The notes: generated by a model not told the origin, from the sequence alone. A stretch of DNA of 64,000 nucleotides from Candidatus Thorarchaeota archaeon (GCA_963726195.1 CAVSBO010000004.1:128001-192000); one strand, 5' to 3'; positions 52,803 to 58,866 are shown, counted from the stretch's first letter. Translations and numbers: made by a program.

Positions 52803-53165
52803 TCACATACCCCACTCTTGCCCCAATCTCTGTCTGTACCATCTGAGCCCACGTTTGGTCAGCTGATAGGATGACTCGATTTGCTCGATCAATCCCATCT
52901 CCACCATGCTCTGAAGAACTCCGAAGAGTTTGTCATCCGATGCCCCGGTAATCTCGAGCAGCTTAGGGAAAGTCAGCTTGCCTTCGCGCCTTAGATGCTG
53001 AGCTATGTCGTATTTGCCGACGGCCCTAGTCTCTCCGCGGTTGATTATTTGTCCACAGTTGGTACAGAGCAGATCTCCCTTCAAATCGTCTCTCGCGACC
53101 TCATTGCTTCCGCATACTGGGCAGGTCGCGTGTGAGAACCTGAGACTGCGTCTATTCTGTGACAT
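52803..53165 (-). CDS. TFIIB-type Zn-ribbon plus winged-helix protein
   Basis: CPVCGS...DLLCTNCG, then LQSMVEMGLI..YQLTKRG. Confidence 0.78.
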   Translation of the reverse strand: MSQNRRSLRFSHATCPVCGSNEVARDDLKGDLLCTNCGQIINRGETRAVGKYDIAQHLRREGKLTFPKLLEITGASDDKLFGVLQSMVEMGLIEQIESSYQLTKRGLRWYRQRLGQEWGM

Positions 53166-53225
53166 GTTTTCGTCCAGCGGCACAGTACGGGATTCTTGAT
53201 AAGAGTAGCGAAGGAGCAACGTTCC

Positions 53226-53753
53226 TCATTCGTCAGGTTGTGCTGTCTTCTCCTCTGACAGTCGCTGGAAGAAGGCGTCGAAGTCAACCTCGAAAGGCAC
53301 CCTTGGCCCGGGCCTAACTCGTTTTCTAGCTCGGTCAATCTCCACGTACTGCTGCTTGGCGAGCTCTCTCAGGTCTTCGAGAACACTTCTTGAGGTCTTT
53401 CTTCTCACGTCTCTTATTTGGTCCAGCGGCACCCATCCTCCTTCCCGGTACGCGAGGGTGATGACGGTCAACAGAGTGGCAGCAAGGCGATCTGGTAGTT
53501 GCCCCTCTTCGCTTGACGATTCAGTAGTCCCTTTCGTGTCCAAGTAGAAGACGCGGCTGATTGGATTGTACCGGATGGTCATCCCAAGCGGCGACAGCCG
53601 TTCCTCAAGTTCAGCTAACCTTTCAAACAGGTGATGTCTTCCAACATCCTCAGGCAATCCAAGGGCATCGAGCATGTCGTCAACTCCTGCTCCTATGACA
53701 CTCCCTGACCGGGTAATCAACCTCAGAATCACCCAGTATTCATTGGTCAACAT
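53226..53753 (-). CDS. Kite-like tandem winged-helix protein (ScpB/Nse1/Nse3-like)
   Basis: LxERLSPLGMTI..FYL followed by a second wHTH (LRELAKQQYV); lies downstream of the SMC and kleisin. Confidence 0.7.
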   Translation of the reverse strand: MLTNEYWVILRLITRSGSVIGAGVDDMLDALGLPEDVGRHHLFERLAELEERLSPLGMTIRYNPISRVFYLDTKGTTESSSEEGQLPDRLAATLLTVITLAYREGGWVPLDQIRDVRRKTSRSVLEDLRELAKQQYVEIDRARKRVRPGPRVPFEVDFDAFFQRLSEEKTAQPDE

Positions 53754-53756
53754 CGA

Positions 53757-57400: not shown

Positions 57401-57779
57401 TATTGTCTGGCTCCAGTCCGAGCGACTCAGTTAGCGACCGAAGTTCGGCAGCCCTGACTCGTCTTCCATCAACATATGAGCGTGGAATCCCGTCTCGATC
57501 GATCTTTCTGAGAAGGCGGCGACCTTGGTCGTCAACCATAAGAGTGACTTCAACTTCCGCAGAGCTTGCACCGTGGCGGATGAAATCGCTCCACTTGGAA
57601 TACCTGCTTTCCTTCTCATTTGATCCGAGCGCGAACTTCAGAGCATGGAATATCGAGGTCTTTCCCGATCCATTAGGTCCAACGATGACGGTGAGGCCCG
57701 GGTCGAAACTGACATTCCCTTCATAGAAGCTAAGGAAGTTCCTCAGCCGCGCTGATGAGATATAGATTCGCTGGGCCAT
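54413..57779 (-). CDS. SMC protein, Smc5/6-like, about 1120 aa; three frameshifts (near 55520, 55485, 54697)
   Basis: LRNFLSF, GPNGSGKT, FMPQERI, coiled coils with a hinge, restored SGGERS signature, LDEID and SQFILFTP. Confidence 0.88.
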
Positions 57780-57798
57780 GACGTACGCCGCCTACTGA

Positions 57799-58866
57799 CT
57801 ATCGCCCCATTATTCTAGCAAGTCTGTCGTAACTCTTCTTTGCTCTCACAAGCCTAGTCAGCCGGTCTTCAGGGGTTCCAGTAAGAAGGAACGGGTAGCG
57901 GCTCAGGAGAAGGCGGTCGGCCGAGGACAGAGGCATCCCAGCGTTCAGGGATTCAATCACACGTTGAATGCTGGCGAAGTCGTCTCCTACAGCCATGAGA
58001 TAGAGCTGGTCAAGGAAGGTATCCGGATACACCTGTTCAAGCTGTTCAACTTTAGGAGTTTTCTCGCTCTCAAGAACTTGGACTAACGACTTGACGTATC
58101 CTTTCTTCCCCAAAGGCAGCACGCCACTGTTCTTGATCAGAGCTTCAAGTCTCTCTTGAGTGATCTGCCCGCTCTCTGAGTTCTCCATCATGTACAAGCT
58201 CACTGCCAGATGCTTGACATCCGCAAAGCTCCACCCGTCTGTAAGATCTGCGACCATCGATGGGTCGATGTTATCCCTGCCTCTGAGTATTTGCTCAAGA
58301 ATCTTCACTCGATCGTTGCTGGTGGCGGACTCAAAGATGTATGACCTGTCAAATGCCGCAAGAATGTTGGTGTCGAGAAGGCTCGGATGAGTCGTAGCAG
58401 CCACAACTATGACATTATCAGTATCCCAGCTTGTTCGCCCCATCTCGCTTTCGAGAACTTCGGAGTAAGCTACAAAGGCGGACCCCACGATGTCCAGTGT
58501 CCCGATATAGAACAAGCACGGGGCATTTCTTCGGGCGAACTCGAATCCTACCCTAACCAGCTCTGAAGGGTCAACTGATTCGCCGCCTGTCGGGGCTTCT
58601 CTGAACCTGACAACGTTGATGGGCAGTTCGACTGAAAGATGGCTGACAAAGGTCTCGAAGTCAGTTCCGGCGCAACCGACGAGCAAGACTCGTCCGCCGA
58701 ATTGAATTCCTCTTTCTTCAAATCCGCTCTTGAGACCTGCCCGACGTCTAACACTTGAGAGAAACTCCGCAGCACGCTCCCTCACTGAGAATTGGGTCAC
58801 TCTGTTGGCAGCAATATCCTCGGGTGTCAAGAGTCGGAGGCTGTCTGCATATGTTTCTTCAGTCAA
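57799..58866 (-). CDS. Degenerate AAA (CDC48/Vps4-like) pseudo-ATPase
   Basis: VLLVGCAGTDFET, FEFARRNAPCLFYIGTLD, VAATTHPSLLD...FDR and LTDGWSFADV lid. Confidence 0.78.
   Translation of the reverse strand: MTEETYADSLRLLTPEDIAANRVTQFSVRERAAEFLSSVRRRAGLKSGFEERGIQFGGRVLLVGCAGTDFETFVSHLSVELPINVVRFREAPTGGESVDPSELVRVGFEFARRNAPCLFYIGTLDIVGSAFVAYSEVLESEMGRTSWDTDNVIVVAATTHPSLLDTNILAAFDRSYIFESATSNDRVKILEQILRGRDNIDPSMVADLTDGWSFADVKHLAVSLYMMENSESGQITQERLEALIKNSGVLPLGKKGYVKSLVQVLESEKTPKVEQLEQVYPDTFLDQLYLMAVGDDFASIQRVIESLNAGMPLSSADRLLLSRYPFLLTGTPEDRLTRLVRAKKSYDRLARIMGR

Follow-up and report, generated by a model that had tools for sequence, protein, structure and literature searches.

Does a cluster of five genes in a Thorarchaeota genome encode a second structural maintenance of chromosomes (SMC) complex related to eukaryotic Smc5/6, and do the genes around its SMC-kleisin-kite core belong to that complex? 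The cluster lies on the minus strand at positions 52803-58866 of the window, a 64,000-nucleotide (nt) stretch of DNA from a Candidatus Thorarchaeota archaeon (GCA_963726195.1, CAVSBO010000004.1:128001-192000, here G000:C4:128001-192000). It consists of five co-oriented open reading frames (ORFs), which encode, in order, an AAA-like protein, an SMC protein, a kleisin, a kite, and a protein with a Zn-ribbon and a winged helix-turn-helix (wHTH); the spacing between them is 3-60 nt. An earlier reading of this DNA, made from the sequence alone, had described five closely spaced co-oriented genes, with which the ORF coordinates and the Pfam and NCBIfam results agree, and had proposed that they form a complete archaeal Smc5/6-like complex with two extra candidate subunits. 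The best reading of the present evidence, and a likely one, is that the operon's products form the second SMC complex of Asgard archaea, termed "SMC5/6-related" in the literature, that a catalytically dead AAA protein is its probable fourth component, and that the breaks in the frame of the SMC gene are assembly errors. The core operon is already known as the archaeal SMC5/6-related system; the conserved dead-AAA partner is the new part and appears to be undescribed.

A dead AAA protein accompanies the second SMC

The AAA-like gene was followed through a sample of 151 Asgard genomes, in which a true ortholog was defined as a match of at least 108 bits that reaches the C-terminal domain of the protein (one ortholog, at 80 bits, was admitted by this domain alone). 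In every genome that bears an ortholog (59/59), the gene lies directly 5' of an SMC match and on the same strand. These genomes span seven GTDB families (f1, f2, f7, f8, f9, f19, and f24). A search of a genome collection with the family-specific SMC motif gave 168 matching stretches, and in 80/80 of the named loci listed, the AAA-like gene adjoins the SMC gene upstream. The labels of these 80 loci are those of Asgard lineages (Thor-, Prometh-, Baldr-, Hod-, and Hermodarchaeota) or of archaea described as uncultured or unclassified; none is a TACK label. The spacer between the two genes ranges from a 4-nt overlap to 54 nt. The sequence-only reading had suggested a comparison of synteny across Asgard genomes, and on both counts this comparison bears out the association. 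Within the genomes and loci examined, no ortholog was seen away from an SMC gene, and families without the operon-type SMC give only generic Cdc48-type AAA matches to the AAA-like profile. The phyletic distribution of the protein tracks that of the SMC.

The AAA-like protein matches Pfam AAA marginally (E 2e-4). Its AlphaFold2 (AF2) model, with a pLDDT (predicted local distance difference test) score of 85.8, contains the alpha/beta domain and lid of the classic AAA clade, and the best fold matches of residues 1-261 are FtsH, p97, PAN, Rix7, Vps4, and spastin (Foldseek E ~1e-12; VIA Z 16-19). The catalytic motifs, by contrast with those of the classic clade, are gone in all 19 aligned orthologs: Walker A has become G-x-x-G-T-D-F, without its Lys, E-R/K or G-T takes the place of D-E in Walker B, and the Asn of sensor-1 is a Thr. 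Remnants of the second region of homology are retained as an FDR motif and the invariant R186. Since Walker A, Walker B, and sensor-1 are all replaced, the protein is classified as a pseudo-ATPase rather than an active member of the family, as the sequence-only reading had supposed.

The best conserved part of the protein is not the AAA fold; it is a helical domain of about 78 amino acids (aa) at the C terminus (residues 278-355), in which Q287, L313, F326, L328, L339, and A342 are invariant. A profile of this domain finds 108 representative proteins among 1.84 billion, in all of which it occupies the C-terminal position, and the named carriers are all Asgard "hypothetical proteins" from Promethearchaeota, Sigynarchaeota, or Baldrarchaeia. 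The domain was unmatched in fold searches with the whole model (a separate model of the domain was not searched), and in the Atlas all scores were <0.8, giving sub-threshold leads. In families f7 and f8 the AAA-like proteins have lost much of the P-loop domain; those of f7 keep the lid and the C-terminal domain. A reduced system is also seen in family f19 (L058, G038:C1:1910000-1924000), where an AAA-like protein of ~460 aa accompanies an SMC of 835-860 aa, a kleisin-sized ORF of 218 aa, and a kite.

A term search of the main text and supplements of van Hooff et al. gave no mention of the dead AAA protein, the Thor Zn-ribbon/wHTH protein, or the adjacent pair of MoxR and VWA genes (described below), and searches of the literature for an archaeal SMC with an AAA or MoxR partner found nothing. 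Taken with its synteny, the AAA-like protein is probably an undescribed, non-catalytic fourth subunit of the complex or a regulator of its assembly or loading.

The frame breaks of the SMC gene, almost certainly assembly errors

The source genome (2.9 Mb in 19 contigs, 88.9% complete) also contains a canonical Smc-ScpA-ScpB operon on another contig (G000:C16), whose ScpA and ScpB are matched by Pfam. The operon in the window is a paralogous set separate from this canonical Smc-ScpAB. The pairing of a second SMC with a canonical Smc recurs in relatives, and in the sampled genomes there is one SMC gene of the operon-type family per operon and per genome. The names attached to homologs of this SMC are those of Thorarchaeota or Promethearchaeota.

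Pfam SMC_N matches the N- and C-terminal halves of the SMC head (E 9e-17 and 4e-17), and Walker A, Q-loop, signature, Walker B/D-loop, and hinge are all found. The columns that are invariant among orthologs hold GPNGSGKT, the Q of FMPQER, SGGERS (over a break), and LDEID. The hinge (SMC_hinge, residues 494-607) is weak in the window copy (E 0.017) and annotated in most orthologs. An alignment to TIGR02168 covers residues 17-738 with a score of 160 bits against a cut-off of 567 bits. The three motifs named in the sequence-only reading are all present: FMPQER occupies residues 131-136, SQFILFTP lies in the last frame, and SGGERS is readable only across a break.

The gene is listed as three ORFs (797, 239, and 70 aa), which are separated by three 1-nt indels: +1 at 55526, +1 at 55483, and the loss of one G from the run at 54700-54696, within the SGGERS signature. 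Repair of these frameshifts, which the sequence-only reading had proposed as a check, yields one continuous frame of 1121 aa (with X at the broken codon) that has zero stops and retains 36/37 of the columns invariant among 19 orthologs. By segment, the read-through is 84, 79, 86, and 95% identical to an intact ortholog of 1122 aa (P0002). Intact orthologs are 1115-1183 aa long, and all other orthologs with a complete frame are unbroken. Breaks of this kind are common in the assembly. When 168 genes of at least 250 aa that have an ortholog in a genome of the same genus (G124) were tested, 29 (17%) were split across frames, several of them two or three times. The canonical Smc of the source genome (L041, G000:C16:99000-106000) is in four ORFs of 225, 100, 543, and 264 aa, and is intact in 13 relatives (1187-1228 aa, mostly 1196 aa). 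Because 17% of the genes are split alike, the canonical Smc among them, and because the read-through is clean, the three breaks are, judging from these sequence comparisons, almost certainly assembly errors rather than signs of pseudogenization; the SMC gene is therefore treated as functional. Programmed frameshifting was considered and rejected, as none of the three sites is shared by any ortholog. The assembly is full of 1-nt indel errors, a caveat wherever a gene of this genome looks like a pseudogene.

The kleisin and the kite

Pfam and NCBIfam give no match to either of the two genes that follow the SMC. The first of these lies behind the SMC gene in 47/47 and 21/22 loci. Its family alignment (A4), compared with an alignment of Asgard ScpA (A9) by hhalign, gives 93.7% probability and E 1.8e-7 over 188 colinear columns, and a profile search of the PDB returned six weak matches, among them the C-terminal winged-helix domain of Pyrococcus ScpA. 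There is no match to Pfam Nse4 and no Nse4 chain in the PDB profile search; support for kinship with Nse4 comes only from the literature, where the protein at the corresponding position in P. syntrophicum is placed with Nse4 (van Hooff et al., 10.1101/2024.01.07.573240). At the level of profile comparison, the 216-aa protein is confirmed as a kleisin.

The AF2 model of the 175-aa protein (pLDDT 83.9) has two winged helices and no Cys-rich tail. The top 12 Foldseek matches are all kites (ScpB, MAGE-G1/Nse3, Nse1-Nse3-Nse4, JetB, and MukE), and the VIA matches that extend over both domains include ScpB (Z 11.3 over 149 residues) and Nse1 (Z 10.2 over 152 residues). By sequence, the protein is not of ScpB type: hhalign gives 19%, and there is no match to PF04079, which the canonical ScpB matches at 1e-30. 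A profile search of the PDB with the kite alignment gave nothing significant, and the Atlas search gave sub-threshold leads only, to DUF4194 and MAGE (0.78). The predicted structure confirms a kite fold. Kleisin and kite folds in the small genes, another point that the sequence-only reading had put forward for checking, are borne out in this way by hhalign to ScpA for the one and by Foldseek for the other.

Relationship of the SMC to Smc5/6

The SMC5/6-related archaeal SMCs were defined by Yoshinaga & Inagaki 2021 (PMC8665677). Operons in which such an SMC gene is followed by genes for an Nse4-related kleisin and an Nse1/3-related kite were described in TACK and Asgard archaea, including P. 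syntrophicum, by van Hooff et al. (bioRxiv 10.1101/2024.01.07.573240); the statement of the sequence-only reading that Smc5/6-related proteins had already been reported in archaea is confirmed by these two publications. A Thorarchaeaceae genome was scored with an SMC5/6-related SMC and an Nse1/3-related kite, and the table lists no Nse4-related kleisin for that same genome (van Hooff et al., 10.1101/2024.01.07.573240). In two independent published trees, archaeal SMCs of this kind fall with Smc5/6, and their kleisins and kites with Nse4 and Nse1/3.

Among eukaryotic proteins, a single-sequence search gave Smc5 as the best full-length match. Against the profile of the operon-type SMC (A5), the scores are 241 bits for Smc2, 233 for Smc3, 212 for Smc4, 178 for Smc5, 169 for Smc1, and 162 for Smc6, with Smc1-4 ranging over 135-241 bits; against the profile of the canonical Asgard Smc (A6), Smc1-4 score 417-529 bits and Smc5/6 <91 bits. 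Smc5 and Smc6 fit the operon-type family about twice as well as the canonical Smc, and for Smc1-4 the reverse is true. These reciprocal scores, which are profile scores and not a phylogeny, are consistent with the published placement. The position of this SMC as sister to Smc5/6 rests on the published trees; the present comparisons do not return Smc5/6 as the nearest relative.

The Zn-ribbon/wHTH gene

The last gene of the operon is listed with a TTG start at 53219, which gives 138 aa. Since orthologs are 118-128 aa long, the ATG at 53165, which gives 120 aa, is the likelier start. The protein matches the TFIIB zinc ribbon of Pfam (Zn_Ribbon_TF) at E 1e-6, its score of 28.6 bits lying under the 29-bit cut-off, and, weakly, the Pfam families TrmB, HTH_45, and MarR. 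Full-length orthologs occur only in the Thor family (f1) and a family of the same order (f2); elsewhere, TFB ribbons alone match. The gene is always behind the kite gene, after a spacer of 30-80 nt.

At one locus (L059, G069:C108), a block made up of the kite gene and the Zn-ribbon/wHTH gene has the opposite orientation to the rest of the operon; the two genes move as a unit. In many Thorarchaeota species the operon is split by 1-4 kb of unrelated genes, such as those for a major facilitator superfamily transporter or a Kelch-repeat protein, between the kleisin and the kite (many of L081-L135, and also L002:1280-5241 and L019:9089-12443), and the Zn-ribbon/wHTH gene still trails the kite there; a few species have the insertion after the kite instead, ahead of the Zn-ribbon gene. 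In one genus of the Thor family (g5; two genomes, 96% and 88% complete), the operon-type SMC, the AAA-like protein, the kite, and MoxR were not found, and the genus has apparently lost the SMC5/6-like operon in its entirety, together with the MoxR pair. Both genomes keep the Zn-ribbon/wHTH gene (L056, G046:C7; L057, G081:C59), which now lies 3' of NADH-dehydrogenase-like, molybdopterin-oxidoreductase, and glutamate-synthase-like genes. The sequence-only reading had counted this protein as an extra candidate subunit. It is indeed syntenic behind the kite in the Thor order, but it is absent elsewhere and survives in g5 without the operon; an autonomous DNA-binding or transcription-linked factor is more likely than an obligate subunit.

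Layout of the locus and its neighbors

The positions of the operon genes and of the adjacent features are collected in Table 1.

Table 1. Features of the SMC operon and its upstream flank (window coordinates)
Feature	Position	Strand	Basis
ATPase-dead classic-clade AAA protein, 355 aa	57799..58866	-	AF2 fold, motif alignment, synteny
Family-specific C-terminal helical domain of the AAA-like protein, aa 278-355	58035-57802	-	ortholog alignment
Second, non-canonical SMC ("SMC5/6-related" in the literature), read-through 1121 aa	54413..57779	-	SMC motifs, orthologs
Kleisin, 216 aa	53757..54407	-	hhalign to Asgard ScpA
Kite, 175 aa, two winged helices	53226..53753	-	AF2 fold, Foldseek
TFB-type Zn-ribbon + winged-helix protein, 120 aa from ATG	52803..53165	-	Pfam, ortholog lengths
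Divergent intergenic region, common to the operon and the MoxR-VWA pair	58867..59030	.	read directly
MoxR-like AAA_5 ATPase (570 aa) + VWA protein (584 aa), conserved neighbor	59031..62498	+	Pfam

The promoter of the operon presumably lies in the divergent intergenic region. On the far side of this region is the MoxR-VWA pair, with Pfam matches to AAA_5, AAA_lid_2, and, weakly, VWA. The pair adjoins the operon in 47/47 Thor-type loci and also in f2, f7, and Baldrarchaeum (loci L060-L079 among those compared). It is divergent from the operon in the window and co-directional with it in f7 and f8 (Baldrarchaeum). In one Loki-type genus (G040, G147, and G129) and in a genome of f24 (G089), the pair instead adjoins the canonical Smc-ScpB operon. 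The pair stands unlinked in other genomes and is present, too, in families that lack the operon-type SMC. These placements are suggestive of a possible functional link between the MoxR-VWA pair and SMC complexes. Just 3' of the operon, at 49148-52141 on the minus strand, lies a gene for a 997-aa protein with DUF7948, beta-propeller repeats, and bacterial TSP3 repeats, which is probably a surface or secreted protein.

A model for the complex, and its alternatives

Eukaryotic SMC complexes need dedicated loaders and regulators, and to our knowledge no prokaryotic forerunners of these factors have been described. In the proposed complex, sequence and fold show a core SMC whose ABC-ATPase motifs are intact and which has a hinge and long arms; it is presumed to be a homodimer because each operon contains one SMC gene. 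The kleisin would bridge the SMC heads and carry a dimer of the tandem-winged-helix kite proteins. Such a ring, driven by ATP, could entrap or extrude DNA alongside the canonical Smc-ScpAB of the same cell. The AAA-like protein may act as a non-catalytic fourth subunit or as a regulator of assembly or loading, and its C-terminal helices might attach it to the SMC or to the kleisin. In the Thor order, the Zn-ribbon/wHTH protein would accompany the complex as a factor that binds DNA or is linked to transcription. A more elaborate version, in which a four-subunit machine has the dead AAA protein as its dedicated loader or ATPase regulator, docked on the SMC by the C-terminal domain and a prokaryotic functional counterpart of accessory factors such as Nse5/6, and in which the MoxR-VWA pair supplies ATP-driven remodeling (loading and unloading) of SMC complexes, is unlikely.

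Several results weigh against this model and lend weight to other accounts of the locus. One such account holds that the SMC is a divergent archaeal Smc paralog with no special kinship to Smc5/6, its label being a long-branch effect, and that the operon encodes a second, condensin-like Smc-ScpAB. The best PDB matches of the SMC are indeed prokaryotic Smc heads (Pyrococcus and Thermotoga), followed by Smc2/3, and the Q-loop segment cited in the sequence-only reading has Smc2 as its best match. The kleisin aligns to ScpA along its full length; in the fold rankings of the kite, ScpB and Nse3/Nse1 are interleaved, with ScpB matched at least as well and providing the best two-domain match. Published topology tests also leave other placements possible, and a published approximately unbiased (AU) test does not reject the eukaryotic SMC clusters as monophyletic. 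However, the roughly twofold preference of Smc5 and Smc6 for the operon-SMC profile over the canonical one (reversed for Smc1-4), the two published trees that place all three components with Smc5/6, Nse4, and Nse1/3, and a kite sequence that is not ScpB-like make a divergent paralog of this kind rather unlikely. The claim that the SMC motifs stand nearer to Smc5/6 than to canonical Smc is upheld in relative profile scores but not in direct similarity; similarly, the proposal of a complete archaeal Smc5/6-like complex holds for the SMC-kleisin-kite operon, which is complete, but Smc5/6 has not emerged as the nearest relative. The accessory genes raise a different difficulty. Adjacency alone could reflect co-regulation or a chaperone-like role in assembly rather than a stable subunit, and the AAA-like and Zn-ribbon/wHTH genes might be co-regulated neighbors, or encode transient assembly factors, outside the SMC machine. 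The Zn-ribbon/wHTH protein is a weaker candidate for a subunit because it persists in g5, where the operon was not found; larger gaps also lie upstream of its gene. Given that much of the P-loop domain is missing from the f7 and f8 proteins, the AAA fold may not itself be required. For the AAA-like protein, however, the unbroken adjacency in all sampled genomes and listed loci, on the same strand, with overlaps or short spacers and across deep Asgard lineages, the match between its distribution and that of the SMC, with no ortholog seen apart from it, and a conserved domain seen in no other protein family argue for membership, and the exclusion of both genes from the machine is doubtful.

A further account gives the complex a mainly defensive role against foreign DNA, comparable to that of Wadjet or to the action of Smc5/6 on viral episomes, in place of chromosome organization. 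Eukaryotic Smc5/6 restricts episomes, the SMC-kleisin-kite architecture is that of JetABC, JetB is among the fold matches of the kite, and an Eco57I-type methylase gene lies upstream in one Loki-type locus. Yet no nuclease gene (JetD/Toprim) is present in any of ~100 loci; PADLOC gives generic ABC and AAA matches only, with a partial match of the SMC to JetC (E 4.5e-12) and nothing for the kleisin or kite; and the context of the operon is stable, vertically conserved across families, and outside variable islands. Without a nuclease gene or a specific PADLOC family, and in so stable a context, the locus bears no mark of a defense island, and a mainly defensive role is improbable. It is also conceivable that the operon is decaying in the source organism, with real frameshifts in the SMC gene and a complex that is non-functional there: three indels within one 3.4-kb gene exceed the mean rate of the genome, and the 50-odd orthologs elsewhere are all intact. 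Against this stand the same splitting in 17% of the tested genes, a canonical, presumably essential Smc in four pieces, the lack of stops or of lost invariant residues past the breaks, the even identity across segments, the intact state of the four neighboring operon genes, and the location of one break at a G missing from a G-run; decay is very improbable. The reading retained is that of a functional second SMC complex with a dead AAA protein as its probable fourth component.

On this reading, Asgards, the closest archaeal relatives of eukaryotes, possess a second SMC complex, a proposed ancestor of Smc5/6. A strictly co-inherited pseudo-enzyme, whose gene overlaps the SMC start in several lineages, offers a concrete candidate for assembling, loading, or restraining this complex. 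For annotators, the four genes form a reliable signature of the Asgard second-SMC system.

Comparison with known systems

The AAA-like protein shares with the classic-clade AAA proteins (FtsH, Cdc48/p97, PAN, and Vps4/CdvC) the same fold, including the lid. Unlike these, it has its catalytic residues replaced in every aligned ortholog and bears a unique C-terminal helical domain. The Zn-ribbon/wHTH protein has the ribbon of TFB/TFIIB, but it is only ~120 aa long and ends in a single wHTH, without the two cyclin folds.

As a whole, the system can be set beside four others. Like Wadjet (JetABCD) and MukBEF, it combines an SMC, a kleisin, and a kite with a fourth factor (JetD in Wadjet; MatP and AcpP with MukBEF). 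However, no Toprim nuclease is found at its loci, its SMC resembles MukB or JetC no further than a partial match, and the fourth factor is an AAA pseudo-enzyme. With Smc-ScpAB it has in common a presumed SMC homodimer, a kleisin homologous to ScpA, a two-winged-helix kite that superposes on ScpB, and encoding in an operon; it differs in being a separate paralogous set, in a kleisin and a kite that miss Pfam ScpA and ScpB, in an SMC that falls under the TIGR02168 cut-off, and in the additional AAA-like protein. Eukaryotic Smc5/6 has the same core of SMC, kleisin, and kite, and both systems have extra, non-kite accessory factors. In contrast to Smc5/6, there is one SMC gene here, and hence no Smc5-Smc6 heterodimer, and a single kite without a RING; a search of the operon genes (not of the rest of the genome) found no Nse1 RING and nothing like Nse2 or Nse5/6. 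The accessory protein here is a dead AAA fold, which is not known in Smc5/6. The closest counterpart is the archaeal SMC5/6-related operon (van Hooff et al.; PMC8665677), which has the same order of SMC, kleisin, and kite and coexists with a canonical Smc-ScpA-ScpB in Asgard archaea. To that operon, the present analysis adds the dead AAA protein, the Thor-specific Zn-ribbon/wHTH protein, the MoxR-VWA pair, and the identification of the kleisin of the Thor type.

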